Shown here: piece after piece, positions 11,473 through 54,513 of the stretch | How positions within the stretch are numbered: position 1 is the stretch's first letter | Layout: each line of letters opens with the position of its first letter | NCBI GenBank assembly: GCA_963797915.1 | Contig: CAWCRG010000017.1 | Location: forward strand, 107,074 to 171,073 | Origin: Candidatus Sericytochromatia bacterium | GTDB taxonomy: Bacteria > Cyanobacteriota > Sericytochromatia > UBA7694 | DNA length: 64,000 nt | Reading direction: 5' to 3' | Position numbers and translations under genes: made by a program | The notes under the pieces: generated by a model | Told to the model about the DNA's origin: nothing | The model's database searches: none | The model's input: the letters and a program-made list of their open reading frames with translations, nothing else

Positions 11473-11507
11473 GGCTTTCCTTTACTGCAGGGATTAGGCT
11501 AGAATAC

Positions 11508-12890
11508 GTGCTGTTCAGTTTAGCAAATCCCACAAACCCCGGAGGTTTTTTGTTGACCTTACGTATTTATGCCCGCTATTTAGAAACCGGTAACGCGCTG
11601 TTCTGTGATCAACTTCTTGAGGTGGATTCCCACGGTCGTATTTCAACTTGTCGCTCCTTGCGGAAGGATGAGCCGATGCCCTCTTGTGTTTATGATTACG
11701 TGGTTCCCGGATGTGTAAATGCCCACAGCCACGCGTTTCAGGTGCTCTTACGCCCCACCACGGGGCAGCCGCAACATTTTAAGGATTGGGTCGATCGCTT
11801 TCTTTATCCTTGTGTACTCGCCTTAGATGAAGAACGCCTTTATGCCTCAGCAGTACTGGTTTTTCACGAAATGCTTCGGGCCGGGATTACCACGGTGGGC
11901 GAGTTTCACTATGTGAATAACTTGCCTGACGGTCAATCCAGTGAGCAGTTATACGCCCATACCCTGATTCGGGCCGCAGAAACCGTAGGTCTACGTATCT
12001 CTCTGATTCGCACCCTTTACGATCAGCGAAACAAGCCGGGGCAAATGCGTTTTCAAGAGTCGCTTGAGCAGGCGATGACACAAACCGAAGCGCTGGCTCG
12101 CCGTTATGCTGACAACCCGCTTGTATCGGTGCTGCCTGCGCCGCACTCTCTTCACGGTGCCAGCCGCGAGCTGGTGTGTGCGGGGGCCGAGCTGGCGAAA
12201 CGTTTGGGTACGCCCTGGCATATTCATCTTTCGGAACAGCCCGGTGATGCGGAATTTGCCATCGAGCGTTACGGCTTAAGGCCTCTGGCTTGTCTAGAGA
12301 GTTGGGGCATTTTAGACCAGGATGCCTGTATTATTCATGGCATCTGGTTCGATGATGACGATCTTGAACGCATGCAGACGCACGCCTGTCGTCAGGTGTA
12401 CAATCCCCTTACCAATATGGCTCTGGGAGACGGTATTGCGCGGCTGCCCGAATTATTAGCGCGCGGCGTGCCAGTGGCTTTAGGCACAGACGCCAATACC
12501 GACAGTTCCTTGTTTTTAGAAGCGCGCATGGCAGAATATCTGCAGCGCAGCCAACAGCTCTCGATGGGCCATGTGTCGGCAGAGCAATTGTTTGCCATGA
12601 CGAATCGCAACGGGGCTCACGCGCTGGGGCTTTCCACGGGTCACCTTGCTGTCGGTCAGGCTGCTGATTTTCTGGCCATAAACCTTTCGAGTCCCAGCAT
12701 GTTACCCGCCAGGGTGACAAAGGAGACGGGCCCGGACGCCTTACGGCAGGCGCTGTTAAACCAGCTCTTGTTCTCTGCCGTTCCGCAAGAGGCCATTCAG
12801 GCGGTTTATGTGGCGGGGCAAAAGCGCATCGAGTCGGGAAAGCATGTGCGTATTGATCTGGCCACTATTTTTCAGTCTGTTTTTGAATGA
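11508..12890 (+). CDS. Amidohydrolase-superfamily deaminase, HutF-like (formimidoylglutamate deiminase)
   Basis: Metal-binding HxH (VNAHSHAFQ) and HIHLSE motifs, ~460 aa, adjacent to hutI. Confidence 0.55.
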   Translation: MLFSLANPTNPGGFLLTLRIYARYLETGNALFCDQLLEVDSHGRISTCRSLRKDEPMPSCVYDYVVPGCVNAHSHAFQVLLRPTTGQPQHFKDWVDRFLYPCVLALDEERLYASAVLVFHEMLRAGITTVGEFHYVNNLPDGQSSEQLYAHTLIRAAETVGLRISLIRTLYDQRNKPGQMRFQESLEQAMTQTEALARRYADNPLVSVLPAPHSLHGASRELVCAGAELAKRLGTPWHIHLSEQPGDAEFAIERYGLRPLACLESWGILDQDACIIHGIWFDDDDLERMQTHACRQVYNPLTNMALGDGIARLPELLARGVPVALGTDANTDSSLFLEARMAEYLQRSQQLSMGHVSAEQLFAMTNRNGAHALGLSTGHLAVGQAADFLAINLSSPSMLPARVTKETGPDALRQALLNQLLFSAVPQEAIQAVYVAGQKRIESGKHVRIDLATIFQSVFE

Positions 12891-21481: not shown

Positions 21482-22423
21482 ATGCTGACTTCTCCGACCC
21501 CCTGGATCTTGTTTCTATTAGGGACCATTATTGGCAGTTTTCTGAATGTCGTTATTTATCGTACCCCTGTCATCCTATTGGCAGGTTGGAACGATGAAGA
21601 CGATGACGCAGAAGAAGTACTGGAAATTCCAGAAGCTTTTGGACCCCGTCTGGGGTTTACGCTTCGCTACTTTTTTTCAGATGTGCTGTACTCTTTTTCT
21701 TATTTGCTCAAGGACTTTTGGGTGGAGATCTATCAGGTGCTGAAGGGTCTGTCTTTTCCAGGCTCTCGCTGTGGTCAATGTCAGCGAGATATTGCCTGGT
21801 ATGATAATCTTCCCGTTTTGAGCTGGTTTATTTTAAGAGGGCGTTGCCGGCATTGTCATACAAGCTACAGTTTTCGCTATCCGCTTATTGAGTTTCTGAC
21901 GGGACTGCTCTTCGTTTATACCTATAGTTTGTATCCCCAACCTCTAGACTTAATGTTCTGGATTCCGTTGGTGAGCTTGTTATGGGCTATTTTTTGGATT
22001 GACCTTGATACCGAGTTTGTCTTCAATGTGATGACATACCCAAGTATTTTGCTGGGGATCCTATATAATGGGTCTAAAGTTAATTTGGGCTGGGCCTTAA
22101 TGGGTGGTCTGATTGCCTGGTGTTTCTTTGAAGGTGTTGCACTTTTGAGTGTTTTCCTCCTTAAGAAACAAGGGATGGGAGGCGGCGACGTTAAACTCGC
22201 GATTCTCATGGGCATCTGGTTAGGTCCTGAACAATTACTGGTGGCATTGGCGATAGCCTTTGTGACTGGGAGCATCGTGGGGGTAACTCTGATGTTAAAA
22301 CAAGGCGAAAGCAAACCTTTTCCCTTTGGTCCCTTTCTGGTGGTAGGTATGTTACTTTCCATGGCGGTTGGGGAACAACTGTGGGCGTGGTATATTGGTA
22401 AGTCAGTTTTGTCACCGGTATGA
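21482..22423 (+). CDS. pilD: Type IV prepilin peptidase / N-methyltransferase (A24 family)
   Basis: CGQC...CRHC zinc-binding tetracysteine, the GGGDVKL catalytic Asp motif and multiple TM segments. Contains an unusual ~60 aa acidic insert (NDEDDDAEEVLE...) after TM1. Confidence 0.8.
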   Translation: MLTSPTPWILFLLGTIIGSFLNVVIYRTPVILLAGWNDEDDDAEEVLEIPEAFGPRLGFTLRYFFSDVLYSFSYLLKDFWVEIYQVLKGLSFPGSRCGQCQRDIAWYDNLPVLSWFILRGRCRHCHTSYSFRYPLIEFLTGLLFVYTYSLYPQPLDLMFWIPLVSLLWAIFWIDLDTEFVFNVMTYPSILLGILYNGSKVNLGWALMGGLIAWCFFEGVALLSVFLLKKQGMGGGDVKLAILMGIWLGPEQLLVALAIAFVTGSIVGVTLMLKQGESKPFPFGPFLVVGMLLSMAVGEQLWAWYIGKSVLSPV

Positions 22424-22460
22424 ACTATAAAGCAAAGCAAGAGGCTTTAAAGAAGAAAAA

Positions 22461-23621
22461 ATGAACTTATTTGGTCGTGAAATAAACACGAAGAGCTTCC
22501 TTCGCTCTTTCTCCAGCCGTTTTTCTAAAGAACCCCCCATTGGTATTGATATTACCAATGAGTTCATTATTGCCGCTGAGCTTGCTGAAGTGCAAAATCA
22601 ACCGGGTCAATATGAAATCATTCGTCTGGCTCTCACAGAGACGCCTGAAGGCGCTGTTCGCGACGGAGAAGTGGTGGACAGCCTCCGCGTGGCGGAAGCC
22701 CTAAAAAACTTTTTAGATGAACATCAGTTTAAATCCCGTCGGGTCATCACCGCGGTATCAGGTCAAGCGGCGATTATTCGCCCCCGCATTAAGTTTCCTG
22801 CCATTCCGATTAAGGAATTACAGGAAGTGGTTATGCATGACGCAGAGCGCTATATCCCTTTCCCTATTCAGGATGTATATATTGACTTCCAGGTGACCGG
22901 TACCGTTGAAGAAGACAATATGACAAAGTATGATGTGCTGTTGGTGACCGCACAAAAACAGCTCATTGACACCTATATCGAGACCTTTGCCCAGGCAGAG
23001 CTTACGCTTGTGGCCGTAGATGTGGCTTCTTTCGCTGTTATGCGTGCTATCGAAGAGCAATTGTCTCAAGAAGAGGGCGAAGAACAGCAGCTTAATGTTT
23101 TGATTCTGATCCGAGGAGAAACCACTGATCTTAACGTCGTGCAAAATGGTGCGCCCCTTTTCTCTCGGAGTATTCCCTTGGGTAGTAGCACCATGATTGA
23201 AACCATCGCTGCAGGCATGGGGCTTGAACTTCAAGAGGCTGTGGCGCTTTTTGATAAGCTGGTTATTCCTGTGGTGGGCGATGAAACCTTTGAAGATCCC
23301 ATGGTCGAGCGCGCTGCTGATGAGATTCGTATGTTATTACAGGAGCTGACGGGTGAGATTAATAAATCTATTGACTACTTTCATCAATCGCAACAAGAAT
23401 ATATGCGTATTCAGCAGCTGATTCTTTCAGATCGTGGTGCCAAAATTAAAAACCTTGACCAGTACTTTGCCCATAAGCTGGGCATGGATGTCGAAATTAG
23501 TAACCCGATTCGCTCACTCTCATTTGATGAGACCGTTTTTTCAGCGGCTTATCTTAATGAAAATGCGCCTCTGTTTGCTACTGCGATTGGACTTGCACGG
23601 AGAGGAATTGAAGAAAATTGA
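22461..23621 (+). CDS. pilM: Type IV pilus assembly protein PilM (actin-like ATPase fold)
   Basis: 386 aa with the PilM-like pattern (IGIDI..., acidic central region). First gene of the pilMNOPQ cluster. Confidence 0.8.
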   Translation: MNLFGREINTKSFLRSFSSRFSKEPPIGIDITNEFIIAAELAEVQNQPGQYEIIRLALTETPEGAVRDGEVVDSLRVAEALKNFLDEHQFKSRRVITAVSGQAAIIRPRIKFPAIPIKELQEVVMHDAERYIPFPIQDVYIDFQVTGTVEEDNMTKYDVLLVTAQKQLIDTYIETFAQAELTLVAVDVASFAVMRAIEEQLSQEEGEEQQLNVLILIRGETTDLNVVQNGAPLFSRSIPLGSSTMIETIAAGMGLELQEAVALFDKLVIPVVGDETFEDPMVERAADEIRMLLQELTGEINKSIDYFHQSQQEYMRIQQLILSDRGAKIKNLDQYFAHKLGMDVEISNPIRSLSFDETVFSAAYLNENAPLFATAIGLARRGIEEN

Positions 23622-24178
23622 CACGCATTAGCATTAACCTTCTCGGCATTGACCGAAAGGAAGCACTTCAGCGCTCAGGCCTTAACATTGATAAAGGGCT
23701 AGCGATTGCTATGACCTCTATCATTATTGCGCTCCTGCTTCTTTTTGGGTCCAACGCCCTCATGAGCAGCCAGCTGGCTGCCGCTGAAGAGCTTAAAGAA
23801 GAAAACACATTAAAAATAGCAGCTCTCGATAAACAAATTGAAGAGATTAAAAGTCTCGAAAAAGAAAAAGCGGATAAAGAGATGGAGGAGAAAATCCTTC
23901 GTTACGTGACCGGAGAAACCTATCGCTGGTCTTATTTACTCCAAGAAGTCCGTTTGCTCATGCCCGTTGATATTAAAATTGATCAGTTATCCTTTAATCC
24001 CCAGGGTGAGTTCTCTTTGCAGGGCTCAGCCACCGATCACCGTTCAGTAGCGATGTTCCTGGCAAACCTTAAAAACTCGAAGATGCTGCAAAACATTCAG
24101 TTGCAAAGCAGCGAAAAACCTTCTGCAGAGGAACCAACTGTGTTTAGCATTACGTGCAAATTGAAAGTGGGAAGCTAA
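23618..24178 (+). CDS. pilN: Type IV pilus assembly protein PilN
   Basis: N-terminal INLLG motif, a single TM and a coiled coil. Overlaps the pilM stop. Confidence 0.7.
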   Translation: MTRISINLLGIDRKEALQRSGLNIDKGLAIAMTSIIIALLLLFGSNALMSSQLAAAEELKEENTLKIAALDKQIEEIKSLEKEKADKEMEEKILRYVTGETYRWSYLLQEVRLLMPVDIKIDQLSFNPQGEFSLQGSATDHRSVAMFLANLKNSKMLQNIQLQSSEKPSAEEPTVFSITCKLKVGS

Positions 24179-24181
24179 GTT

Positions 24182-24835
24182 ATGCCAACTATCGAAGCTT
24201 TCGGCCGTTCCTTTAATACCGACAATATTACGACCTTTCACAAGGTTTTAATTGGCGGAGTTACAGCTGCCCTGATTGTTTTTGGGGGAGGCTATCAAAT
24301 GGTCTATCCCAAGTGGGAAAACCTGCAAGTCCTTAACGAAGAAACAGAGCAACAGCAAAGCGATATCGAAAAAAAGCAAATTCAGGTAAAAAATCTGGAT
24401 AAACTTAAAGAAGAGTTGAAGGTTGTTCAGGCCAGTCTGGTGGCGCTGCGTCGTAAGATCCCAACAACGGCCAATGAGTCTCCACTGCTTTTAGATGTCG
24501 AAGAAATTACAGAAAATAAAGCGTTGTACGGTAACTCTGCGGTTTTGAACACCTTTAAGCCTGGCGGAATTGTTGACTTTACTTTGCCTGCTGAGTTACA
24601 GAGTGCTTCTGAATCTCCTGCTGCAAAGCAACTCAAGCAATTACCCGTACAGATTCAATTGAGCAAGGTGTCTTATCCTGAATTGATTGAGATGCTACAA
24701 GATCTTGAAAACTATGAACGAACGTTGAGCATTGAAGGCTTAACGATCGAACCCCAAAATGATCCCCAGGCCTTGTATACACCGGTCAATGTTTCTTTCA
24801 CATTGAAGGCCTTTTTGATAGAAGGAGCAAGTTAA
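24182..24835 (+). CDS. pilO: Type IV pilus assembly protein PilO
   Basis: TM helix, coiled coil and C-terminal periplasmic domain. Position in the cluster supports the call. Confidence 0.65.
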   Translation: MPTIEAFGRSFNTDNITTFHKVLIGGVTAALIVFGGGYQMVYPKWENLQVLNEETEQQQSDIEKKQIQVKNLDKLKEELKVVQASLVALRRKIPTTANESPLLLDVEEITENKALYGNSAVLNTFKPGGIVDFTLPAELQSASESPAAKQLKQLPVQIQLSKVSYPELIEMLQDLENYERTLSIEGLTIEPQNDPQALYTPVNVSFTLKAFLIEGAS

Positions 24836-25563
24836 TGTTAGGACACGCTTTAATCCTATCAAGTATGTGTGTCGCAGCGACAGGTCTCTTACTTTACTCA
24901 TTAAGCTTACCGCCTGAAGATTTAGGTAATGACCCAACAGTTATTGTGGTTGCGACGCCGGAGCCGGTTGTCACCGCCTCGGGCACCCCTGATACTGGTG
25001 AGTCTCCTGATGCTACAGTGGTTGCTGTCGCATCAGCTACGCCTGCCCCAACACCCACTCCCACCCCAAAGCCCACGGTAGATCCTTTAACGTCTTATAA
25101 TATTGCCGCGAGTACGCCTCAGGCCGTGCTTAGACAAGCCCAGGTGCATGCCGGGCGGGTGGATCCTTTTAAGTCTGTTCAGCCCCCTGATCTGCCCGAT
25201 TTTGAACCGGCTATTTCAGCGAATCAGCTGGCCTTACCCGCTGCGTTTCCGATGGTTAAGTCCGATAAACCCGTGAATACCGTCCCCTCTCGCACACCTA
25301 ATATTATAGAAACACAACCGACGCCTCCACCGGCAAAACCCCTGACACATGGGCTTTCCTTAAAAGGTATTATGGATGGAGGAATCGATCCGATTGCGAT
25401 TATTGAAATCAATGGTCGCACAGAGCTCTTTCGTGTGGGCGAACGCCTGCCCAATAATATTCGCGTCACTTCAATTAACTATGAAGAACGACGTGTGACT
25501 TTGTCTCGTGGCCAGGCTACGGGAACCCTTTATCTTCCCGAACCAAATAGCCCTAATTTTTAG
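24835..25563 (+). CDS. pilP: PilP-like pilus assembly lipoprotein with a Pro/Thr-rich linker
   Basis: Hydrophobic N-terminus, PT-rich low-complexity segment and a C-terminal beta domain (IIEINGRTELFRVGERL...VTSINYEERRVTL). Confidence 0.55.
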   Translation: MLGHALILSSMCVAATGLLLYSLSLPPEDLGNDPTVIVVATPEPVVTASGTPDTGESPDATVVAVASATPAPTPTPTPKPTVDPLTSYNIAASTPQAVLRQAQVHAGRVDPFKSVQPPDLPDFEPAISANQLALPAAFPMVKSDKPVNTVPSRTPNIIETQPTPPPAKPLTHGLSLKGIMDGGIDPIAIIEINGRTELFRVGERLPNNIRVTSINYEERRVTLSRGQATGTLYLPEPNSPNF

Positions 25564-25575
25564 GAGGAAAGACAT

Positions 25576-27174
25576 ATGAAAATTTCTACATTTAAACGTA
25601 AAAGCACAACTGCTCTTGCCACTTTAACCTTGCTAACGACCATGACTTCCACGGCATGGGCCGATAACAGACAGGTCGTTAATCCTCCTGTAGCAGGTGC
25701 TACTGACGCATTAACGATTCGTAAAGCCTTTCGTTTAGAAAAAGACCCCCTGATTAGCATTGTGCAACGCAATGCGAATGTGGAGTTTATTTTACGGGGA
25801 CTGGCGCAAAAAGCGGGCTTGAACCTGGTTTTTATGGCTGGTGATAACGCTGCTGCGACAGCGCAAGCTGCCTCCCTGGCACCCGCTTCATCGGGTGGAG
25901 ATGACGCTGCGTTAATGGAGTTAGCAGCGCTTGCGGGTAATACAAACGCCGCTTCTTCAGGAGCCGCTCCCAGTGCTATGGTTGCAAAAATGACCATTCC
26001 CTATCTGGAGTTGCGAGACATTCCATTGAGCGAAGCCTTTTCGCTTATTCTGCAAATGAGTGGGTTGAGCGGACGTCGGGTGTATAATTCGCTTATTATT
26101 ACAACGCCAGCAAAAATGGATCAAATGGGCTTTGCTTCCCCGCTCATTAAAACCTACACGATTTATAACCAGGCAGCGACGCTTGCTGTACAGAGTGGTG
26201 CCGCTGGTGGTGCTGGTGGCTGGTAGCTGCTGGTGGTGCTGGTGGCGGAGCGTGGTGGTGCTGGTGGTGCTGGTGGTGGCGTTATGTCGCCCATTGTGCA
26301 ACAACTCCAGGCTGTTTTTAGACGCCGTGGTTTGAACCCTGCGCCTGAGCTATTGATTGACCAGCGTACGGCAACCCTGATTGTGATCGGGAGCCAGGAA
26401 GCAATCGATATTGCTGATCAGCTGGTTCCTATACTTGACCGTGCTTTGCCTCAGGTGAATGTAGAAGTGAAAATGATTGAGCTTACCCAACGGGCAAGCC
26501 AGGAACTTGGCTTGAGTTATGAAATTGGGCAGGGGCAGACCGCTGCCGCCTTTAACAACAGCGCGATTTTACCGGGCCAGGCGCCGAATCCTCCTGCCGC
26601 TGAGGGTGAGTCACTCGTCAGCTTTAGCACCCTTAATCGCTTGGCCCCCAACTTTAGTGCGCGCTTGAACGCGTTGATTCGAGACAGTCAGGCCAGAGTG
26701 TTGACCAGTCCACGCTTGACGATTCAGCACGGAGTTCAGGCGATCTTTGACTCTACCACAGCGTTTCCTATTATTAGCACCACAGCTACAGCCACTGCGG
26801 CTACGCAGACGGTTCAGAGTATCAATATTGGTGAAAAACTGACGATTACGCCTTTTGTTGATTTGGAAAAAGGCTTGATTACGATGAAGCTGGTGCCTGA
26901 AATTTCTACCCGCGGTGAGTTGGTAAGTGCCGGTGGCCAGACCATTCCCGAAGTCAACAATCGCAAAGTTGATACGATTTTGACTGTTGAAGACGGTGAG
27001 TCGGTGGTCATTGGCGGACTGATGCGCAAAACGGATACCGAAGTCAAAAACAAGATTCCTTTATTGGGCGATATTCCTTTACTGGGCGCATTGTTTTCTG
27101 ATACGGTAACCAGCAAAGAAGATGTTGAAATTCTAATTATGGTTACTCCCCGTATTTTAAAGAGTGGCCGGTAA
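25576..27174 (+). CDS. pilQ: Type IV pilus secretin PilQ, interrupted by an in-frame TAG (26224..26226) inside a Gly/Ala (GGTGCT)n microsatellite
   Basis: ORF 25576..26226 has the signal peptide and N-terminal secretin/STN-type domains. ORF 26233..27174 is in the same frame and holds the secretin_N plus C-terminal secretin domain (IPLLGDIPLLGALF). A 19-nt direct repeat flanks the stop, with the second copy in a shifted frame. Confidence 0.8.
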
Positions 27175-34709: not shown

Positions 34710-36968
34710 TTACTCAACGACCTCAAAGGGAATATGGGTGACGCGAGAAAGATCGGACCAGACGGCCTGATATCCTGGGTGAGCAGAAACATTATTGCTT
34801 TTGTTAACCACGGGTTTGAGACCTTTTAATGCGGAGACTGCGAGTACATAAGTTTCCTGCTCTTTTAAACGCAGTTTACGAGAGGTAAAAGGATAATCGA
34901 TCTGTGTCGATTTGGTCCACCCCTCCCAGATGACCTTACGCCCGGCATTGTTGCCTTCGGTGAGCGTCACATGATAAATTTCAGCGCCTGAGACGGCGTC
35001 CCAGGCCATGGTTGGCGTGGCGGGAATGGTGTTGTCACTCTCTCCCTGAATTTCGAGTTTACTCATGACGGGTAAAAAGTCTACACTCAGGCTATCAGCG
35101 GCGTCTGCTAGATTGTAGATGTGATGGTAGGTGAGTCCACCATCAACGTGGGTCGCGGTAAATTGCAGGTGATACTTTTGTCCACCGGAAAGTACAGGGA
35201 GGTTAACCCGAAAGCTTTGCGGCTCTTTGCTTCCCTTTTTACTCTCTGTTGCCGTTGAAGGGGAGGGAGTTGGAGAAGGTGTGCTCTTCTGATTGCCCTT
35301 GCTAATCAAGCTTTTGTCAGCAGTGGGGGGGGCGGTAAAGGTTTTGGTCAACAAATAGGCCTCTTCGGGGTGGGCGCCTTTTTCTTCAGGCTCAAGACTG
35401 ATGTACACATCCATAGACTTTAAAGTGTAGCCCTCAGGAACTTGCACCTTACCGCTCAGGACCATATTCTCTAGGACAGAGCGCAGGGAGATCACGGGTG
35501 CTATTTTAATGGCTTCGCTTTCGTCTTCTTTTTCACCGGTAAAAAAGTTTTTTACGGTATCAAAAACGTTAGTGCCCTTCTTTTCTTCGACAGCCTCCTG
35601 ATTCTCCTCGATGGTTTGAGGGTTTTCTGATGCTGCTGAAGGGGTGGGATACGGTTCTATCGGCGGAGAAATAATTGGGCTTTCAATCGTCTCTGGTGTA
35701 CTGCTCGCATAAGGAGAAACGTCTTTGTCGATCGCAGGACTTTCGGTTGCTGCGGGGCTTTCTGCTTCCGCAGGGCCTGGCGTTGCTTCGCTGAGTATTT
35801 TGTTGACGTTCTCAATGAGCTCTTCGGCAGTGGGTTTGGGGGTGCCGTCAGGACCCGGCAGCGTGCTGGGCTTCTCTTTGAAGACCAGTTCCTGGTCTTT
35901 AATACTTTTGTTGTTGACAATAATGTTTTTGAGTAAACCCATTTGTCGGATATCACCGTCGGGGTTTTGCACAAAGGCCACAAAACTTCTCCGTCCAAAA
36001 GGCACAGCCGGCAGCTTAAACTCGCCCAGGCTATTGCTGGTAGCCGGTATGCCAATGGCTGAGCCCATCGGAAAAGAAGAGCTAACCAGGGCGTCGGCAA
36101 TGGGGGTGTCGGTGGGAGATAGAACACTGCCGACAATATCCATCATTTGATCGTTATTTAGCGGTACCAACGGAATTTCTAAGCGGTTGGGGTCCACATC
36201 GGTCAGGGTAATACTGCGATAACCGGGTGCTGAAACGCTAATGGTATGCTTGCCTTCGGGCACGTCATTAATAAAGAATTTGCCACGGTTATTGCTGTTG
36301 GTTTCAAAAAGATTCAAGGTGCTGTTTGCCGCCGCATTCACGGGCGTTACGGCCTGAGACCCGACATAGCGAGTCAGTACTTCTGTGGGTGCTGCTCCCA
36401 GAGTGCTCACGCCTGAGTTATCGGGCTGCACAGCATCAGAGCCGCCAGGTATACCCGTCCCAGGAAGACCAGGGCCCACCGGTGCTGAGCCCGGCGGTGT
36501 GCTGGTGGCATTCGGAAGGGTGGGGATACTGCCGTTTACAGAAAAACCGGTGGATGGGCTGGCTGAGGGGGCTGTGATTGAAGGCTGTGCTGAGGGCGCT
36601 TTGACGGCTGTAGGCACTGCGTTGGGAAAAGGCGTTGAGCTGCTATTGGGATTGCTACTGGGGGGAGATGGGTTGTTTTGGCCTGTGTTGTTCGGCGGTG
36701 TGGCCGATGCAGCGGGTGCCGGCTCGGCCTGTATTTTAAGCGTGATTTCGGCATTATCAACGGGCTCCAGCGTGTATCCGTTAATTACCGTTCCTGTAAA
36801 ACGCTGCGTTTTAAGGGTGCTGGCCTGGGCTGAGGGCTTGGCCGCGAGGTTCGGAATATTACCGGCGGCGGGATTGGGTGAGCTGCTGTTAGAGCTTCCA
36901 CAAGCTGTTAAAAACAGGCTGCTGGCGAGTAAATACAACACCACAGAATGACGTACGGTTGCTTTCAT
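34710..36968 (-). CDS. Large secreted lipoprotein with carboxypeptidase-regulatory-like (Ig/transthyretin-like) domains and long Pro/Ser/Thr/Ala-rich low-complexity regions
   Basis: The likely start is the internal Met (MKATVRHSVVLYLLASSLFLTACGSS, lipobox). Repeated motifs of the type GTVINGYTLEPVDNAEITL and GKFFINDVPEGKHTISVSAPGY. Confidence 0.6.
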   Translation of the reverse strand: MKATVRHSVVLYLLASSLFLTACGSSNSSSPNPAAGNIPNLAAKPSAQASTLKTQRFTGTVINGYTLEPVDNAEITLKIQAEPAPAASATPPNNTGQNNPSPPSSNPNSSSTPFPNAVPTAVKAPSAQPSITAPSASPSTGFSVNGSIPTLPNATSTPPGSAPVGPGLPGTGIPGGSDAVQPDNSGVSTLGAAPTEVLTRYVGSQAVTPVNAAANSTLNLFETNSNNRGKFFINDVPEGKHTISVSAPGYRSITLTDVDPNRLEIPLVPLNNDQMMDIVGSVLSPTDTPIADALVSSSFPMGSAIGIPATSNSLGEFKLPAVPFGRRSFVAFVQNPDGDIRQMGLLKNIIVNNKSIKDQELVFKEKPSTLPGPDGTPKPTAEELIENVNKILSEATPGPAEAESPAATESPAIDKDVSPYASSTPETIESPIISPPIEPYPTPSAASENPQTIEENQEAVEEKKGTNVFDTVKNFFTGEKEDESEAIKIAPVISLRSVLENMVLSGKVQVPEGYTLKSMDVYISLEPEEKGAHPEEAYLLTKTFTAPPTADKSLISKGNQKSTPSPTPSPSTATESKKGSKEPQSFRVNLPVLSGGQKYHLQFTATHVDGGLTYHHIYNLADAADSLSVDFLPVMSKLEIQGESDNTIPATPTMAWDAVSGAEIYHVTLTEGNNAGRKVIWEGWTKSTQIDYPFTSRKLRLKEQETYVLAVSALKGLKPVVNKSNNVSAHPGYQAVWSDLSRVTHIPFEVVE

Positions 36969-37073
36969 GGAGATACTTTCCCAAAAATTTTTGGTATTAT
37001 ACCAGATTCCTTGGAAGCGAAGCACTGGCGCGACTTCGTGTTAAAATCTAAAGCATAAGGAGACGCCTATTTC

Positions 37074-38990
37074 ATGACACAATCTTCAGCTCCCCCCGAT
37101 TTAAACCGTATTGGTGATTTGCTCGTAAAAGAAGGGCTTCTTACCCCGGATGCTTTACAAAAAGCCTTAAAGTATCAAAAGGACTCTGAGGGGTATAAAC
37201 CCCTCGGACGGGTTTGTGTCGATCTTAAGCTACTCTCTAAAGTCGATTTGCAACGCTTTTTGCGTAAACATCAAAAAAGTATTCACCTGGGAGATATCCT
37301 CTTGAATATGGGTTTGATTACCCATGAGCAGTTGAATCATGTTCTCGAACAGCAAAAAGTCACCCAATTGCGCTTTGGAGACTTGCTCGTTAGACACAAC
37401 GTGATTTCTGAGTCGCAATTGGTGGAGGCTTTAAGCTTACAGCTTGATTTGCCCCGTATTGTGCCCTCTCCGGAATTGGTTGACCGCGAACTATTGAAAG
37501 CCCTCGATGAAGGCTTTTTGAGATCTTATGAGTGCTTGCCGATCCATAAATACGAAAATCAAATGGTGGTGGTCATGTCGGACCCGCTCAACGGGGAGCT
37601 GATCCAGCGTTTGATCGATGTGTTTAAATGTAAAATTATGCCGTCTATTGCTACGCCCACAGAGATTTTGGCCTGTATCAGTGCGTTATTTGATGCCGAG
37701 TCCACCCGTTTGAACAATTTAAACATGGACCATGACTTACTGCAGGTGACCCACCAACATCATCTGAGTGAAGAAAAACTCATGCCCGTGGCTCAGTTTT
37801 TGGTGCGTTCTGCTGTAGAGGCTGGAGCCACGGCGCTGCATGTGGAGACCCATGAAAATTATGTGCGTGTTCGCTATCGTATTGACGGTGTCTTGCAGCA
37901 TAAAACCGATCTTCCTCAGCGCATGGCCCCCATGCTCATTCAGTGTATGAAAACACCGTTTCGCTTAAAACGTCAGCGGTATTGGGAAGAACATATCACC
38001 ACGCAAGTGGGAACGAAGAAAGTGAATTTGTCGATCTCCTTTTTTCCAGGCATCTGGGGCGAAAGCCTTGTGATGCATATTTCTCATCCCAAAGCAAATT
38101 TTATTGGTTTAGAATATCTGGGCTTGTCTCCCTTTGTGCAAGGGCAGTTGAATAGAGGCTTGTCTCGTGCCGGTGGCTTAATGATTGCCGTCAGCCCCAT
38201 TCGTAACGGCAAGACCACCCTGCTCTATTCTTGGTTGGCTCACGTGGGGAAAGCGCATCACAATACCCTAACCCTCGAAGATAATATTGAGCATCAGTTG
38301 CCTGGCACAACCCAGTACCAATACCCTCCTAACTCCACCGACAGTTATGAATCCATGATCGAAGCGATGATTGATTATGACTCTGATGTCATGATGGTGA
38401 GTGCCGTTAAAAATAAAGAAGTGGCGTTGCGCTTGAATCGCGCTGCATTGGTGGGCAAAAAAGTTTTTTCTTCGGTGGCCTCAAACGATACAACGACAGC
38501 CATTTATCAGCTCATGGAGATGGAGGCCAATGCGCTATTGGCAACTCCAGCGCCGGTCATGCTGGTGGCGCAGAAGCTTTTGCGTAAACTCTGCGAGCAT
38601 TGCCGTGAGGCGGTTCCTCTGGCGGCTGTTCAATTGCAGAAACTGGGCGTGACGCTAAAGCAGACAGAAAAGCGTTCGGTATATGAGGCGCGCGGGTGCG
38701 AAGCGTGTGAGCACCTGGGATACTCAGGAATGACAGCTCTACATGAAGTGTTTGAAATCTCTGAAGCCGATCGCCAGGTGATTTTGAAAGGCGGAACCGC
38801 CTCTGCGATTCGAGAACAGGCACGCCAGCACCGGCGTCTGATGTCAATGGTTGAAGACGGTGTTTATAAATCATTGATTGGTTTGACTAGCCTCGAAGAG
38901 GTATTGAATACCGTGCTGATTTATGAGGAAGATCTTAACACCCCGCGCAATGTGGAAGACATTTATTATTTGTGTAACGGTGAGGCTTAA
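37074..38990 (+). CDS. Catalytically degenerate GspE/MshE-family pseudo-ATPase with two tandem MshEN-type c-di-GMP-binding modules, a GspE_N domain and the C-terminal Cys4 zinc site
   Basis: Four copies of the 24-residue MshEN motif RLGxxLLxxGLLxxxxLxxxLxxQ (for example RIGDLLVKEGLLTPDALQKALKYQ). Walker A is degraded (SPIRNGKT vs GPTGSGKST), Walker B GEIRD is replaced by SAVKN, and both His-box histidines are lost (VGKKVFSSVASN). The CxxC...CxxC zinc site is retained. Confidence 0.7.
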   Translation: MTQSSAPPDLNRIGDLLVKEGLLTPDALQKALKYQKDSEGYKPLGRVCVDLKLLSKVDLQRFLRKHQKSIHLGDILLNMGLITHEQLNHVLEQQKVTQLRFGDLLVRHNVISESQLVEALSLQLDLPRIVPSPELVDRELLKALDEGFLRSYECLPIHKYENQMVVVMSDPLNGELIQRLIDVFKCKIMPSIATPTEILACISALFDAESTRLNNLNMDHDLLQVTHQHHLSEEKLMPVAQFLVRSAVEAGATALHVETHENYVRVRYRIDGVLQHKTDLPQRMAPMLIQCMKTPFRLKRQRYWEEHITTQVGTKKVNLSISFFPGIWGESLVMHISHPKANFIGLEYLGLSPFVQGQLNRGLSRAGGLMIAVSPIRNGKTTLLYSWLAHVGKAHHNTLTLEDNIEHQLPGTTQYQYPPNSTDSYESMIEAMIDYDSDVMMVSAVKNKEVALRLNRAALVGKKVFSSVASNDTTTAIYQLMEMEANALLATPAPVMLVAQKLLRKLCEHCREAVPLAAVQLQKLGVTLKQTEKRSVYEARGCEACEHLGYSGMTALHEVFEISEADRQVILKGGTASAIREQARQHRRLMSMVEDGVYKSLIGLTSLEEVLNTVLIYEEDLNTPRNVEDIYYLCNGEA

Positions 38991-38992
38991 GG

Positions 38993-41347
38993 TTAATCGG
39001 GCTTCACTTTAGAAAGGGCCTCTTCAAGGGAGGTTAGGCCTTCTTTAACCTTGCCCATGGCATCCCAGTAGAGGGTAATCATGCCCTCTGCAACGGCCAT
39101 CTTTTTAAGGGCTTCAGCCGAAATACCTGGCTGTGTGATGGCGTTGCGAATGCTCTCATTGGGCACCAGTAGCTCATGAATGCCTGTCCGACCGCGGTAA
39201 CCCGTGTCATTGCAGGCCTTACACCCCTCTGCCTTATAAAGCGTTAACGGCGTACCGTTGGTGTGTCCCAATTGATTCATTTCTAGCTCGCCAGCCTCAT
39301 AGGGTGATTTGCATTCTGTACATAAGCGGCGTATCAGGCGTTGGGCACAAATCATGAGTACGGAAGGGCTAATCATAAAGGGAGAAATGCCCATTTCAAT
39401 AAATCGCGTCAGGGTAGAAGCTGCATCATTGGTATGCAGCGTAGATAAAAGCAGATGACCCGTAAGGGCTGCCTCGACGGCAATATGTGCGGTTTCGTGA
39501 TCTCGAATTTCTCCCACGAGGATCACGTCGGGATCCTGGCGAAGGTAAGCGCGTAAGGCGCGGGCAAACGTGAGTCCAATTTCGGGCTGGACCTGGAGCT
39601 GGTTAATATTAGGCAGGGTGTACTCAATGGGATCTTCAGCGGTTTGAATATTAATGTGGGGTTGATTAATTTCATTGAGGGCTGAATACAGCGTCATTGA
39701 CTTACCTGAGCCGGTGGGTCCCACATGTAAAATCATACCGTAGGGGCTTTGCAATAGCTCGCGATAACGCTTTAGGTTATAGTCTGAAAAACCAAGTGAT
39801 GACAGCGGTAGCATGCTTTTTTGCTTGTCTAAAATACGCATGACCACTTTTTCGCCATAGTTCATGGGGGCTGTCGAAATACGCAGGTCAAAGTCTAAGC
39901 CTTTGCGATTAAACTGTTTATAGACAATGCGACCATCCTGGGGCAAGCGCCGCTCCGCAATATTGAGCTGTGCCATGATTTTTAAACGGGCCGAGAGGGG
40001 CTGGATCAAACTGGCCGGTGTGAGCTGATGATAGTCTTTTAAGATCCCGTCTACGCGGTAACGCACCCTCACGTTGTGCTCCCGGCTCTCAATATGAATA
40101 TCTGAGGCTTTTGCCTCATAAGCTTCCTCGATTAAACGATTCACTAAGCGAATCATGGGAGCGCTTGTGGGATCGTCTAAGCCGACGACTTCTTTCGCGC
40201 TGTTGCTATCGCTGACATACTGAGACTGCAACTCATCCATGAGATCTTCCATCTCATGCGCCTTTTGTTTGGGGGTCTTGGGTGCCGCGGGCACTGTTAC
40301 AGCTCCAGCTGCTGCGGGCGTTTGTTGAAACAAGCGTTGTAAGACCGCTGGAATGGCAATGAACCGTGACGCTTTACGATAGTTAAGGAGGGTGTCCTGA
40401 ACTTCAATTTGAAAGGGATGAGCGAGGGCAAAGCTCAATTGGTTTTTGTCGTTATCAAAAGGAACCACGCTGTACTTACGACAAAAGGGCATGGGGAGAA
40501 CGCCGGGTCTAAGCTGTTGGGTTTCTACATCGGTTAAAAAAGGCAAGCCGGTATAGGTCGAGACCATTCCTGCGGTTTGGCTGGCGCTGACGCCGTGTAA
40601 AAGCAGTTGCTCGTAAACATTGTCTGGCTTGAGATCCTTGACGATTTCCTGAGGAAGACTTTCTTCTAGAAATTTGCAAAATCCGGCAAAACTTGCGCGA
40701 TCGGCCTGGGAGCTTGACTGCGTTTTTTGTGGGCTTTGGGGGACTAAGCTGAGTTCTTTGGCTGCGGGTACAAACAGGTTTTCGGCAACGGCTGCGGTTT
40801 GGGGCTGCGCGGCTGCAAAAGCCGGTAAAGGGGGAGTAGATACCTGGGGCGCTTTTTCAATCTGACTTTGTTCAGCAGTCTTTGCCAGGGGAGGCTCTGG
40901 TTTAGTAGGGGCTTTAGCAGGGGCTGAGGGTGTCTGAGCGACAAAATTGCTGCGCCACTGTTTTTCGACTTCCAGTGCCTTTTTGACTTGCTCACTCAAT
41001 ACCTCTAGCGTCAGTGGTTTATTTAAGAAACCCACGGCGCCCATTTGAAAAGCCTGTAGACGATTTTCAGCTTGTAAACTCGCGGTAATCATAATGATCG
41101 GAATCAGAGCCAGCCGAGGATCTGACTGTAGCTCTTCACACACCTCATAACCCGACATACCCGGCATCTCAATATCCAGTAAGATCAAGCGGGCTTCGAG
41201 ATGATGCTGGCGTAAAAGCTGCAGTGCTCTTTTGCCGTTATCTATCGCTTCTACGGTAAACCCGGAATGACTGAGCATGCTCTTGACGAGCGTGCTCATG
41301 TCCTTATCATCATCTATAACGAGAATATCTACGTTCTGCATATACAA
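38993..41347 (-). CDS. Response-regulator receiver (REC) domain fused to a GspE/PilB-type secretion/pilus assembly ATPase
   Basis: N-terminal REC with the phospho-acceptor context (LILLDIEMPGMSG). GspE_N domain. Intact Walker A (GPTGSGKS), Asp box, Walker B (VGEIRD), His box (TGHLLLSTLHTN) and Cys4 zinc site. Confidence 0.8.
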   Translation of the reverse strand: MYMQNVDILVIDDDKDMSTLVKSMLSHSGFTVEAIDNGKRALQLLRQHHLEARLILLDIEMPGMSGYEVCEELQSDPRLALIPIIMITASLQAENRLQAFQMGAVGFLNKPLTLEVLSEQVKKALEVEKQWRSNFVAQTPSAPAKAPTKPEPPLAKTAEQSQIEKAPQVSTPPLPAFAAAQPQTAAVAENLFVPAAKELSLVPQSPQKTQSSSQADRASFAGFCKFLEESLPQEIVKDLKPDNVYEQLLLHGVSASQTAGMVSTYTGLPFLTDVETQQLRPGVLPMPFCRKYSVVPFDNDKNQLSFALAHPFQIEVQDTLLNYRKASRFIAIPAVLQRLFQQTPAAAGAVTVPAAPKTPKQKAHEMEDLMDELQSQYVSDSNSAKEVVGLDDPTSAPMIRLVNRLIEEAYEAKASDIHIESREHNVRVRYRVDGILKDYHQLTPASLIQPLSARLKIMAQLNIAERRLPQDGRIVYKQFNRKGLDFDLRISTAPMNYGEKVVMRILDKQKSMLPLSSLGFSDYNLKRYRELLQSPYGMILHVGPTGSGKSMTLYSALNEINQPHINIQTAEDPIEYTLPNINQLQVQPEIGLTFARALRAYLRQDPDVILVGEIRDHETAHIAVEAALTGHLLLSTLHTNDAASTLTRFIEMGISPFMISPSVLMICAQRLIRRLCTECKSPYEAGELEMNQLGHTNGTPLTLYKAEGCKACNDTGYRGRTGIHELLVPNESIRNAITQPGISAEALKKMAVAEGMITLYWDAMGKVKEGLTSLEEALSKVKPD

Positions 41348-51556: not shown

Positions 51557-52951
51557 ATGAAAAAAGTAACCAACACCTTCGCTAAAACCCTTTTGCTGGC
51601 CACCATGGGCAGTGTCATCTTCACATCTTGTGGTAAATCAGACCTCGCTTCTCAAGTGAGCGCTCCTGCTATCGGCAATGCCCAGGGTGCGGGTGGTACC
51701 GGCGGCGGCAATGCTTACACCGGACCCACCACCAATAATCAATATGGCGATATGCTTCCCGTAGAGCAGTCTCCTGAACAACCTCTCGATACCCCTGAAC
51801 CTCTTCCTGCTCCTCAACAACCCGCTCAACCCGGTGAGGTCTTTCAAATCAAAGCCGTGGGCAACACCACAGCCTTCGCCGTTCCTCAAATCAGCAAGTA
51901 CGTACAACTCAACGGTGTTTATGTTTATATTCACCTGACCTGGCAGCCCGTCAACGGCGCTGCTGAATACTGGATCTATAAAAATGACATTCCCGAGTGG
52001 AATGAAGTCGGTCGTGAGAAGGCATTTGCCATTGTAGAAGCCAAAGACTCTCAGGGCTACAATACCGGTCTGGCTGGATTTAAAGACGGCATGGCCGCTC
52101 CTAACTTAAAAGACGGAAACCTCTGGGATCGCATTAAACGCGGTTTTCAAACCATTACCAATCGCCCCAATGTCGATTACGTATACAAAATCGTTGCGGT
52201 AGACCCTAACGGTATTCCCATGTCTCAGTCCAGCGTAACCACCGGTCGTGCCATGAGTTCTGTGAGCACTCCCGTTATGTTAGATGCTGCGATGACATCG
52301 ACCGTTACCCCTGTACTCCCCTGGAAGAAGTCCACTGACGGCATGGAGCCTCACGGTTACTACGTCAGCGTATTTCCTTCTGTTCAGGGATTGAGCCAGG
52401 GCATTCTGCCTCCGACCTCTCTGGCGGCATGGACCACCTATATGAATAACCAATACAATAGTGTGCAACAGGTGACCTACGGTAAAAACAAAGGCAACTT
52501 GCTTTCTTACGCCGGTGTATTGCCCTTCGATATTACCTTTAATCTAAAGCCCGGTGCCAACTACTCCTGGTCAGTCATCAGTATTCGCACCGATACCGGT
52601 AATATGCAAACGGCAAAGCAAATTTCTCGCACCTGGAGTGGTTTTGGTCACTTCCAAATTGCTCCAAATGCTAAGCCAGTGGACCCCCGCCAGAACCCTG
52701 AAGCGGAATCGGTCGCTGCCCAACGCGTCAATGCTCAACGCACTTATCCGAACTATCCCACCAACACGGGCTATAATAGTTACAACGCAGGATCTCAATA
52801 CCCTCAGACCACTTACCCTCAGTCTGGAAACTACGGTAATGCTTACCCCGCACAGACAGGCTACCCTGCGCAAACGGGTTACAACCAGTACGGTTCTGCT
52901 TACCCCCAACAAGCTTATGGAGCTTACCCTGAGCAACGCCAACGCTATTAA
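51557..52951 (+). CDS. Secreted lipoprotein with a C-terminal Q/N/Y/P-rich prion-like low-complexity tail
   Basis: Lipobox (IFTSCG). The globular middle region is followed by ~75 aa of YPxxTGY-type degenerate repeats (NYPTNTGYNSYNAGSQYPQTTYPQSGNYGNAYPAQTGYPAQTGYNQYG...). Confidence 0.55.
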   Translation: MKKVTNTFAKTLLLATMGSVIFTSCGKSDLASQVSAPAIGNAQGAGGTGGGNAYTGPTTNNQYGDMLPVEQSPEQPLDTPEPLPAPQQPAQPGEVFQIKAVGNTTAFAVPQISKYVQLNGVYVYIHLTWQPVNGAAEYWIYKNDIPEWNEVGREKAFAIVEAKDSQGYNTGLAGFKDGMAAPNLKDGNLWDRIKRGFQTITNRPNVDYVYKIVAVDPNGIPMSQSSVTTGRAMSSVSTPVMLDAAMTSTVTPVLPWKKSTDGMEPHGYYVSVFPSVQGLSQGILPPTSLAAWTTYMNNQYNSVQQVTYGKNKGNLLSYAGVLPFDITFNLKPGANYSWSVISIRTDTGNMQTAKQISRTWSGFGHFQIAPNAKPVDPRQNPEAESVAAQRVNAQRTYPNYPTNTGYNSYNAGSQYPQTTYPQSGNYGNAYPAQTGYPAQTGYNQYGSAYPQQAYGAYPEQRQRY

Positions 52952-52983: not shown

Positions 52984-54513
52984 GTGGCACAACACAACAA
53001 GATATTTCGTACGCTAACCCTCCTACTTTGGGGGGCGGGCGTTTTCTTGCTGCTGGGTTGTCCAAATTCGGGCGGCCCGAATGGCGGAATTGTTCCCGGT
53101 ACCACAGCCAACCTAACGATTCGTGTTATTAATGCTGTAGACCAGAGCCCCATTCAGAATGCGCGGGTTTCGCTTAAGCTTAACGGTGAAGTGGTCGGTG
53201 GCGAGCAGGGCAGTGACGCTAACGGTGTTGCCACCTTTCCGGCTTTGCCCGCTGCTATTGGATACAAAGCTTTTGCTTCAAGCGTAAATGGTTTTGCGCC
53301 TGGCGCTTCTCCCAGTATTAAGCTGGTCAGTGATCAAACCGTGGTCATCCCCATGCAGCCCAGTCTCTCCCAGGGGGCCGGTCTTTTAGCGGGCTCTGTT
53401 AAAGATGGCCGAAGCAAACTTCCGTTGCCGGGTGTCTCTGTCTCGCTGAGTCCAGCAGGTGTTGTCGCCGCACAGCGCTTTAATCCAGGCATTCGCCAGC
53501 AGAACGTCCCTTATTATGCGCCTCCCTATCGTATTCAACAGGTGGCGCAAAGTGCGATCAGTGATGATGCCGGACAGTTTACCTTTGAGCAGGTGCCTCC
53601 AGGAGCTTACTCCCTTACGTTTACCCTTTCGGGTTATCCCGATGCCCAGCGAAATGTTCAGGTGATTCAGGGTGAGCCGAGTATTGTTGAGACCGTTTTT
53701 TTGGGCGCTTCTACGAGTTTAACGCCAGGAACCGGTAACGTCGCCACTCGGGGCCATGTGCTTATTACCGATGCTCAGGGCGTTTACCAGCTTTCGAATA
53801 CAGGAGAGCGGGTGTTCTTTGTGCCCACTCGCAACGCTGCTTCGGCCACGCGTCTTCCTGATGACACCACGCTCATTGCTGACGAGGGTGCCAATCAGGT
53901 GCGCATTGTCAGTCTCGCCGGAGATATCCTCTGGGATATGGCCGGACTTTTCAGTCGGTTAAATCGCCCAAGCTGGGTGGATGCGGCGCGTGACGGCCAG
54001 TCTTTCCTGGTGACGGACTCCGGCAACGGTCGCATTATTGAGGTGGAAAATAAGCAGCGTGTGTGGGAGTTTCCTGGCTTAAATAATCCTCGCTCTGCCA
54101 CTTATGTCGCAGGGACCGGAACAGTACTGATTGCGGACACGGGAAACGCCCGCGTGGTCGAGGTTGATCGCTCTACCAACACCGTGGTATGGGATTACAC
54201 TTTAAGTATGCAAGCACCTTCTCATGCGGTACGTCTGACTGACGGCGACACCCTTATTACCGATGCTGCCTATAACCGGGTTATTCGGGTGAAGCCCAAC
54301 AAACAGGTCAGCCTCTTTTTTGATGGTGGCGTGAGTGAGGGCGGTGATCCCGCTGCCGGACTTTTACGTCCTACCAGCACGATTGCTACACGTTTCGGAA
54401 CCTTTTTGATTTCGGATACGGGGCATAATCGTGTGGTAGAAGTGGATGCCAATGGCCAGGTTGTGAATCAAATCAACGGACTTTCGAGTCCTAAAATCAT
54501 TGAGCGCCTTTAA
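52984..54513 (+). CDS. Secreted protein with a carboxypeptidase-regulatory-like domain and NHL-repeat beta-propeller
   Basis: Hydrophobic N-terminus with LLGC. NHL-like repeats (TDSGNGRIIEV, ADTGNARVVEV, SDTGHNRVVEV). Confidence 0.6.
   Translation: MAQHNKIFRTLTLLLWGAGVFLLLGCPNSGGPNGGIVPGTTANLTIRVINAVDQSPIQNARVSLKLNGEVVGGEQGSDANGVATFPALPAAIGYKAFASSVNGFAPGASPSIKLVSDQTVVIPMQPSLSQGAGLLAGSVKDGRSKLPLPGVSVSLSPAGVVAAQRFNPGIRQQNVPYYAPPYRIQQVAQSAISDDAGQFTFEQVPPGAYSLTFTLSGYPDAQRNVQVIQGEPSIVETVFLGASTSLTPGTGNVATRGHVLITDAQGVYQLSNTGERVFFVPTRNAASATRLPDDTTLIADEGANQVRIVSLAGDILWDMAGLFSRLNRPSWVDAARDGQSFLVTDSGNGRIIEVENKQRVWEFPGLNNPRSATYVAGTGTVLIADTGNARVVEVDRSTNTVVWDYTLSMQAPSHAVRLTDGDTLITDAAYNRVIRVKPNKQVSLFFDGGVSEGGDPAAGLLRPTSTIATRFGTFLISDTGHNRVVEVDANGQVVNQINGLSSPKIIERL

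Follow-up and report, generated by a model that had tools for sequence, protein, structure and literature searches.

A conserved PilB/GspE-type paralogue in Sericytochromatia with a degenerate catalytic site, two tandem MshE-type c-di-GMP modules and a convergent REC-ATPase neighbour

In type IV pili and type II secretion systems (T2SS), the assembly ATPases are treated as homohexameric motors, and their control by cyclic di-GMP (c-di-GMP) through MshEN domains has so far been studied on active motors only. In Vibrio cholerae MshE, Clostridium perfringens PilB2 and Myxococcus xanthus PilB, an MshEN domain, consisting of two 24-residue half-sites in a 53-residue four-helix bundle (MshEN_N) and a GSPII C-subdomain, sits on an N2D and CTD core with a tetracysteine (Cys4) zinc site. 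Here, we describe a relative of these proteins encoded in a 64,000-nucleotide stretch of DNA from a Candidatus Sericytochromatia bacterium (contig CAWCRG010000017.1), referred to as the window. The gene (37074..38990, + strand) encodes a protein of 638 amino acids, with coordinates, strand and length as given by the original prediction, an earlier reading of the sequence alone. This protein (the target) has the same MshEN domain and Cys4-containing core as MshE, PilB2 and M. xanthus PilB. Those three are active motors with canonical motifs and a single MshEN_N, whereas in the target the catalytic residues are gone and MshEN_N is present twice. Thermus thermophilus PilF is similar in carrying several c-di-GMP-type modules before the ATPase; it has three GSPII domains, of which B and C bind c-di-GMP and A does not. 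In PilF, however, the repeated units are entire GSPII domains and the ATPase is active, whereas only the four-helix N-subdomain is duplicated in the target and its ATPase is degenerate.

Other described systems share single aspects of this arrangement. In the FimX-PilZ-PilB systems of Xanthomonas and Pseudomonas, the pilus extension ATPase is under the control of a c-di-GMP receptor that is a protein in its own right and enzymatically degenerate, but the folds are unrelated (a degenerate GGDEF-EAL protein with a PilZ adaptor) and the receptor is no motor paralogue. Two paralogous PilT-superfamily ATPases act together on one machine in the PilB/TfpB system of Acinetobacter and in PilT/PilU systems, but there each of the two is competent for catalysis. 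F1-ATPase, whose non-catalytic alpha subunits still bind nucleotide, offers a dead-paralogue parallel from another enzyme family. A further parallel, again from a different enzyme family, is the AdoMetDC prozyme of Trypanosoma brucei, a dead paralogue under selection that acts on or with the live enzyme (PMC5201418). Whether PilB-like ATPases form hetero-oligomers was treated as an open question in a 2024 review of PilB cofactors (PMC11656802). In the literature searched, we found no published description of a PilB/GspE pseudo-ATPase and nothing relevant on pili or c-di-GMP in Sericytochromatia.

Our preferred explanation, drawn from sequence, predicted structure and synteny, is that the target would be a c-di-GMP-sensing pseudo-ATPase that modulates a REC-controlled motor encoded next to it. 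As a composite of several steps, we give it a probability of about 0.5. By homology, the target is a member of the T2SSE superfamily that fails, at the level of sequence motifs, five of the features defining an active PilB/GspE. Its N2D and CTD core (residues 235-611; 37776..38906, + strand) matched the Pfam family PF00437 with 197.9 bits (E 2.6e-58; cutoff 24.9) and could be aligned to PilF and PilB. The best sequence match in the PDB was T. thermophilus PilF (6f8l, E 1.6e-82). Residues 124-210 (37443..37703, + strand; the N1 domain) matched PF05157, the Pfam model of the MshEN/GSPII C-half. The AlphaFold2 (AF2) model, with a mean predicted local distance difference test (pLDDT) score of 81.6, placed two four-helix units (residues 12-65 and 72-124) before the alpha/beta GSPII C-subdomain, N2D and CTD. 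In Foldseek searches, this model matched GspE, PilF and PilB (E ~1e-35 to 1e-28), and the top match was 4pht, GspE in complex with GspL. The GSPII C-subdomain is presumed to be the docking domain for a PilM/GspL-type platform.

The scores against the equivalog models were far below their cutoffs, at 288 bits for PilB (TIGR02538; cutoff 675.65) and 256 bits for GspE (TIGR02533; cutoff 630.25). The database names 'PilB', 'TadA' and 'GspE/PulE' given to homologues are therefore valid at the family level only. Equivalog identity as 'TadA' or 'PilB' was ruled out by these sub-cutoff scores, and the Cys4 site assigns the protein to the PilB/GspE clade.

We read the state of each catalytic motif from alignments of the target to its canonical neighbour, PilF and PilB, with motif roles according to McCallum et al. 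In Walker A (residues 374-381; 38193..38216), GPTGSGKS is replaced by SPIRNGKT; the first Gly is Ser and position 4 is a derived Arg, so that the consensus GxxxxGK[ST] no longer fits, while the G-K-T core is kept. The canonical Walker B DPDVILVGEIRD corresponds to DSDVMMVSAVKN in the target (38379..38414), where VGEIRD has become VSAVKN (within VMMVSA, Gly is replaced by Ser and the catalytic Glu by Ala444). In the His box VGKKVFSSVASND (38451..38489), TGH...LHTND has become VGK...VASND, and both histidines are replaced (Lys462 and Ala469). Both arginine fingers of N2D are lost as well (37971..38039): RRLPQDGR is RQRYWEEH at residues 300-307, and DLRIS is NLSIS at residues 318-322. Two features are kept. 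The Asp box reads LEDNIEH in place of AEDPIEY and retains the Mg-coordinating Glu (E402, at least 90% conserved), and the zinc site C507/C510/C542/C545 (38592..38708) is invariant in 32 of 32 members of the clade described below. The original prediction had reported the loss of the catalytic Glu (GEIRD to SAVKN) and of both His-box histidines together with retention of the zinc site, all of which the alignments bear out; the loss of the arginine fingers and the retained Asp-box Glu were absent from it. It had also listed Walker A among the substituted motifs, which is correct in that the motif is altered; it is not dead, as the G-K-T core is kept and the variant is conserved.

The first 32 homologues listed, which are protein clusters formed at 90% identity and come from independent assemblies, carry the same degenerate signature; their identity to the target is 41-93%. 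Across this clade, S-P-x-R-x-G-K/R-S/T is nearly invariant: P375, R377 and G379 do not vary, K380 is at least 90% conserved and Ser/Thr381 is fixed (alignment A1). The first His-box histidine is lost in all 32 members, with G-K-K fixed there, and the second histidine column is variable, with His in one member (P0027). The position of the catalytic Glu varies freely and is occupied by A, S, Q, R, K, E, D or H. Because the altered Walker A keeps G-K-T and the variant is conserved, nucleotide binding may survive. A fixed P-loop combined with a free catalytic-Glu column fits a site without hydrolysis that still binds something, most simply nucleotide, and nucleotide binding without hydrolysis is the better reading than a dead Walker A.

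These data also bear on whether the target might remain a working ATPase whose catalytic residues are non-canonical or have been relocated. The conserved G-K-[ST] core and Asp-box Glu would fit this, as would the Glu kept at the catalytic position in some clade members (e.g. VGEVKD in subclade B). However, the catalytic Glu, two histidines and two arginine fingers have all gone at once, the freedom of the catalytic-Glu column is the pattern of an unconstrained site, and mutations in these motifs abolish activity in characterized PilT-like ATPases (McCallum et al.). We therefore consider a working ATPase very improbable. With the catalytic Glu, the His-box pair and the two arginine fingers absent, the hydrolysis cycle would be unable to run.

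In total, ~48 protein clusters carry a degenerate signature, which is apparently confined to Sericytochromatia among the homologues listed. A second branch of 16 clusters shows the related signature GPxRxGK[ST], AENPIE and xGAKV..PAFD. Named members of both branches belong to Candidatus Sericytochromatia or Blackallbacteria, plus one metagenome-assembled genome (MAG) labelled Melainabacteria, and all organisms carrying the family are uncultured MAGs. In a neighbour-joining tree of the core, all degenerate sequences grouped together, apart from the canonical ATPases, a grouping that may reflect long-branch attraction. Independent support for common descent of the degenerate clade comes from a derived residue that its members share, the Arg at position 4 of Walker A. 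Single MAGs have up to three degenerate PilB-like paralogues, which represent subclades A, B and C. Two degenerate paralogues lie in tandem on one contig (L012:2622-4547 and 4826-6697), and at another locus (L023:531-2438 and 10001-11878) a subclade C gene lies ~7.5 kb upstream of a subclade A gene and its partner.

The target gene is under strong purifying selection. The clade alignment contains 99 invariant columns. Between the target and its 93%-identical orthologue, the nonsynonymous divergence (dN) was 0.045, with synonymous sites saturated (proportion of synonymous differences, pS, 0.72). In the same comparison the active partner had a dN of 0.089, so the target is the more tightly constrained of the two. 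The dN/dS ratio of the target was ~0.02-0.07, and the loss of catalytic residues was accompanied by purifying selection elsewhere in the protein. Apart from the motif losses themselves, nothing speaks for a pseudogene in decay or for an artefact of sequencing or assembly. The 638-codon frame is intact, the substitutions recur throughout the 32 clusters, and dN is low with synonymous saturation; this explanation is accordingly excluded, and its probability is practically nil. The degeneracy of the catalytic machinery is a conserved, selected state and not an error, which also disposes of the artefact that the original prediction had named as a way in which it could fail.

We next considered the receptor modules. 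The 53-position NCBIfam hidden Markov model (HMM) NF053729 ('c-di-GMP_motif'), which was built for c-di-GMP-binding MshE-type domains and has a curated cutoff of 38 bits, gave two separate matches in the target. Fragments scanned singly scored 53.4 bits (residues 1-69) and 66.0 bits (residues 69-130). Judged by this curated HMM, both N-terminal modules are bona fide MshE-type c-di-GMP-binding domains: module 1 at residues 12-66 (37107..37271) and module 2 at residues 71-123 (37284..37442). The AF2 model, read for secondary structure only in these units, showed helices at residues 12-19, 25-37, 44-50 and 56-65 in module 1 and at 72-78, 84-96, 101-107 and 113-124 in module 2. A profile of module 1 alone, made from 16 family members, matched residues 298-358 of PilF (GSPII-C), the N-terminus of Geobacter PilB and residues 7-60 of V. 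cholerae MshE. Module 1 aligned to PilF GSPII-C, its closest counterpart in PilF, over both half-sites. Module 2 matched MshE (5htl) and the PilF c-di-GMP-domain entries. The two tandem MshEN modules of the original prediction were thus recovered by the HMM.

Wang et al. (2016) described a strict motif, RLGxx[LVI][LVI]xxG[LVI][LVI]xxxxLxxxLxxQ, and a relaxed pattern for searching, [RKPN]hGxxhhxx[GAS]hhxxxxhxxxhxx[QNKRYWST]. The four 24-residue half-sites were scored against the relaxed motif in the 32 clade members. Half-site 1a (residues 12-35) had no deviation in the target and passed in every member. Half-site 1b (residues 43-66) begins with Pro and deviated at three positions (Cys6, Lys10 and His24), and these deviations are fixed in the family as Cys6, Lys/Arg10 and His/Tyr24. 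In half-site 2a (residues 71-94), the single deviation was His at position 1, which is Gln, His or Ser in the family and never the permitted Arg, Lys, Pro or Asn. Half-site 2b (residues 100-123) likewise had one deviation, Asn at the turn Gly, and passed in 19 of the 32 members. The full relaxed motif was thus met in the target by 1a only, and failures against the strict motif numbered one (1a), four (1b), one (2a) and two (2b). The four consecutive motif matches claimed originally hold at the domain level, as both modules exceed the HMM cutoff; at the residue level, 1b is an approximate match. Gly-3 of every half-site (G14, G45, G73 and G102) was invariant across the clade, and positions 2, 11, 12, 17 and 21 were hydrophobic in all members. 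Among the critical residues, the sole exception was the Cys at position 6 of 1b.

The deviations raise the question of whether the modules no longer bind c-di-GMP and instead serve as structural or protein-interaction helices, as in PilF GSPII-A, within a ligand-independent structural paralogue. GSPII-A, a non-binder, has His at position 24 and Ser at position 1, although the causes extend beyond the motif. The His at position 24 and the lost Arg at position 1 recur in the target, 1b departs from the relaxed motif at three positions, and 2a never carries Arg, Lys, Pro or Asn at position 1. On the other hand, both modules score above the curated cutoff, Gly-3 is invariant and the hydrophobic positions are kept. 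In MshE, it is mutation of Gly-3 or of the hydrophobic contact residues that costs more than 10-fold or abolishes binding, whereas changes of Arg9, Asp12 and Gln32, among them the Arg-1 and Gln-24 positions, cost fivefold or less (Wang et al.). Furthermore, PilF GSPII-C, a nanomolar c-di-GMP binder (PMC12002112), likewise has Pro-Leu-Gly at the start of its second half-site, which opens with Lys-Pro-Leu-Gly after a seven-residue spacer. The spacer of module 1 is also seven residues rather than five. We therefore regard loss of binding by the modules as quite unlikely, and c-di-GMP binding by them as likely from their sequence. Module 1 is a bare four-helix unit without its own GSPII C-subdomain, and MshEN_C (PF05157) follows module 2 only. 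Binding is likelier for module 2 than for module 1, because an MshEN_C subdomain belongs to module 2. In MshE, MshEN_N is sufficient for binding when isolated (Wang et al.).

The tandem array itself is not a new element. The nearest catalytically canonical relatives, 34-37% identical to the target, come from Desulfobacterales, Desulfacinum, Syntrophaceae and Nitrospinota and combine GPTGSGKT, GEIRD and TGHKV..FHTxD with the same 1a-1b-2a-2b array. '(MshEN_N)2' arrangements and REC associations had, moreover, already been noted by Wang et al. (2016). The original statement that the combination is undescribed thus stands, within the literature searched, for a PilB/GspE pseudo-ATPase and falls for the double array. 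Since the array is present in catalytically intact Desulfobacterota relatives, it was inherited; what is derived is the catalytically dead site, together with the REC-ATPase pairing. The uncharacterized (MshEN_N)2-ATPases of Desulfobacterota and Nitrospinota (e.g. P0036, P0076 and, in Desulfacinum hydrothermale, L032) resemble the target in the array and in a 'G-H/K-K-V' flavour of the His box. They differ in their canonical motifs, in a C-terminal extension of ~200 amino acids in many of them, and in their gene neighbourhood: in place of a REC-ATPase pairing, a REC-GGDEF gene precedes them in 8 of 13 loci retrieved.

In those eight Desulfobacterota loci (L007, L025, L026, L027, L030, L031, L034 and L042), the REC-GGDEF gene lies directly before the canonical (MshEN_N)2-ATPase gene, and the two appear to form a conserved, apparently uncharacterized two-gene module. 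The sole copy read (L007:8504-9994) has the signature GGNFA instead of GGDEF and looks degenerate. A search with this GGDEF-like protein as probe yielded Desulfobacterota neighbours only.

The partner of the target is encoded convergently (38993..41347, - strand; 784 amino acids). According to Pfam and the alignments, it comprises a REC domain (residues 8-121, with canonical D12/D13, D58, T88 and K110) that a P/A/Q-rich linker joins to a GSPII C-subdomain, followed by a PilB/GspE core that is canonical throughout and has the Cys4 site. Every catalytic motif is canonical, as expected of the active ATPase that the original prediction had placed next door. No c-di-GMP (MshEN_N) motif was detected by NF053729 in the region before its ATPase core. 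The sensors are thus split between the two proteins, with REC and no c-di-GMP motif in the partner and c-di-GMP modules and no REC in the target. Their stop codons are 2 bp apart in the window (38988-38995), and the convergent stops of relatives range from a 6-bp gap to a 39-nt overlap. As this leaves no room for an intergenic terminator, the two transcripts are probably antisense-overlapped at their 3' ends. A promoter and terminator scan around the pair gave results at chance level and was uninformative.

Counting the window, the partner abuts the target's orthologue in 13 of 13 subclade A loci with flanking sequence (WIN, which is the window, L001/L002, L004, L005, L008-L011, L017, L019, L020 and L023, where one contig is recorded twice, as L001 and L002), at 48-93% identity. 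The pair is kept across at least three otherwise different genomic contexts, in which only the pair is constant, and the outer flanks on both sides have been rearranged at least twice. In the window-type context, the pair is flanked by CarboxypepD_reg lipoprotein and ABC ATPase genes on one side and, on the other, by genes for NupC, TerC, TatD and ribosomal proteins. The Blackallbacteria context has phospholipid-synthesis genes on one side and glycosyltransferase, CvpA, TadE, TadG, prepilin peptidase and Flp genes on the other; L010 has neither arrangement. This invariant convergent adjacency backs the proposed link to the neighbouring active REC-ATPase.

Several features of these loci are of separate interest. 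In Blackallbacteria GCA_002781665.1 (L001:14362-19593), the REC-ATPase gene is the last in a run encoding a Flp pilin, prepilin peptidase, TadE, a TadG-like protein (PF13400), TadE, CvpA and a glycosyltransferase, so that Tad-type pilins are combined with a PilB/GspE-type ATPase and not with one of the TadA/CpaF type. In the 93%-identical relative (L005:11914-14288), the partner was called as two genes, encoding REC (163 amino acids) and MshEN-T2SSE (628 amino acids). The window partner is a single 784-amino-acid open reading frame (ORF) with a TTG start and its P/A/Q-rich linker at approximately residues 135-215. Either this is a real split/fusion polymorphism, or the low-complexity linker contains a frameshift or was handled differently in gene calling.

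How the two proteins would act together can be outlined as follows. The target would be a catalytically inactive PilB/GspE-type paralogue kept as a signal receptor, with at least one of its two MshE-type modules, and probably both, binding c-di-GMP. Because the GSPII C-subdomain, N2D, CTD and zinc site are intact, it should still fold, oligomerize and dock like a motor subunit, and it may bind nucleotide via the variant P-loop and the Asp-box Glu. It would act with the abutting REC-ATPase, either in mixed rings or by competition for a type IV pilus-like platform. The output of the motor would then integrate the c-di-GMP level, sensed by the dead paralogue, with a phosphorelay input received by the REC domain on the live partner. 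Heteromerization of the two is purely conjectural, and could conceivably take the form of one mixed ring like the alpha3-beta3 ring of F1-ATPase, with c-di-GMP-sensing and possibly nucleotide-binding dead subunits alternating with phosphorylation-controlled catalytic ones. We consider this particular arrangement quite unlikely and offer it as speculation.

Other observations weigh against the preferred explanation. Each module combines one canonical half-site with one deviant half-site (1b and 2a), so that c-di-GMP binding is likely and not assured, because PilF GSPII-A shows that small deviations can abolish binding. K380 of Walker A is Arg in two members, including the closest orthologue (P0002), which weakens the case for nucleotide binding. 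No GGDEF or EAL domains were found by tblastn with approximate probe sequences in the window and ~0.35 Mb of Sericytochromatia flanks, and an Rfam scan of the window that included c-di-GMP riboswitches gave no hits. The adjacency is weaker evidence than an operon would be, because convergent genes are not co-transcribed. In the degenerate subclades B and C, there is no adjacent partner, and the family may act through targets other than the REC-ATPase. Conversely, no pseudo-ATPase lies next to any of 21 REC-ATPase relatives that come from other metagenomic lineages and show 41-52% identity; a reciprocal pairing was thus looked for and not found. Evidently, the REC-ATPase is able to work without the dead paralogue, which is apparently a Sericytochromatia-specific add-on.

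The absence of a partner beside subclades B and C and of a pseudo-ATPase beside REC-ATPases elsewhere would also be expected if the target were a stand-alone c-di-GMP effector that does not act via the neighbouring ATPase. It could then form a dead-hexamer plug or placeholder on the pilus platform, or a scaffold for another output such as exopolysaccharide production, for which a signalling role of M. xanthus PilB has been proposed. The retained docking subdomain would suit such a role, as PF05157 scored higher in the target (54.6 bits) than in the partner (37.7 bits), and there is a precedent for PilB as a signalling protein (PMC5544727, PMC6957770). What speaks against it is that, among the target's own orthologues, the partner is never missing and its stop abuts, despite at least two rearrangements of both outer flanks. 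A stand-alone effector is thus possible, but we think it somewhat unlikely, and we retain modulation of the REC-controlled motor as the preferred explanation.

In other, high-GC lineages, REC-fused GspE/PilB ATPases were orphan genes outside pilus operons in the two loci examined. One (L062:3053-5980) lies beside a gene for a CHASE8-PAS hybrid histidine kinase and the other (L055:4809-5744) beside a gene for an HDOD protein.

As for the machine that the pair may serve, a candidate lies 10 kb upstream of the target gene. This cluster (21482..27174, + strand), identified by Pfam, contains pilD, which encodes an A24 prepilin peptidase, pilM (22461-23621), pilN, pilO and a PilP/T2SSC-like gene, followed by an STN-domain ORF and a secretin gene, and may belong to a type IV pilus or a T2SS-like system. 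No ATPase, platform or pilin gene was found in the cluster by Pfam. The secretin appears to be split or frameshifted, as the STN-domain ORF (25576-26226) is followed by a separate Secretin ORF (26233-27174) with a GTG start.

Among the other ORFs of the window, CarboxypepD_reg domains occur in two large secreted or lipoprotein-like products, encoded at 34710-37025 (- strand) and 52984-54513 (+ strand). The first is transcribed divergently from the target gene and is conserved beside it in the window-type context; its product contains long low-complexity stretches rich in Pro, Ser and Ala, with LTAC as a likely lipobox, and the GTG annotated as the start probably lies ~19 codons too far upstream. 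Two further ORFs, at 2346-5075 (+ strand, 909 amino acids) and 51557-52951 (+ strand, 464 amino acids), had no Pfam match at E <= 0.001.

The automated names 'PilB', 'TadA' and 'GspE' overstate the function of these Sericytochromatia proteins. A conserved, selected dead paralogue with receptor, docking and oligomerization parts would represent a class of regulator new to these machines, in which a motor subunit has become a sensor, and it would bear on whether different PilB-like ATPases form functional hetero-oligomers. The pair would provide a natural system in which c-di-GMP and two-component inputs lie on separate paralogous chains, making their integration experimentally separable. If true, a mixed ring would give the PilT/GspE superfamily its first heteromeric motor, with second-messenger and phosphorelay inputs on separate subunits.

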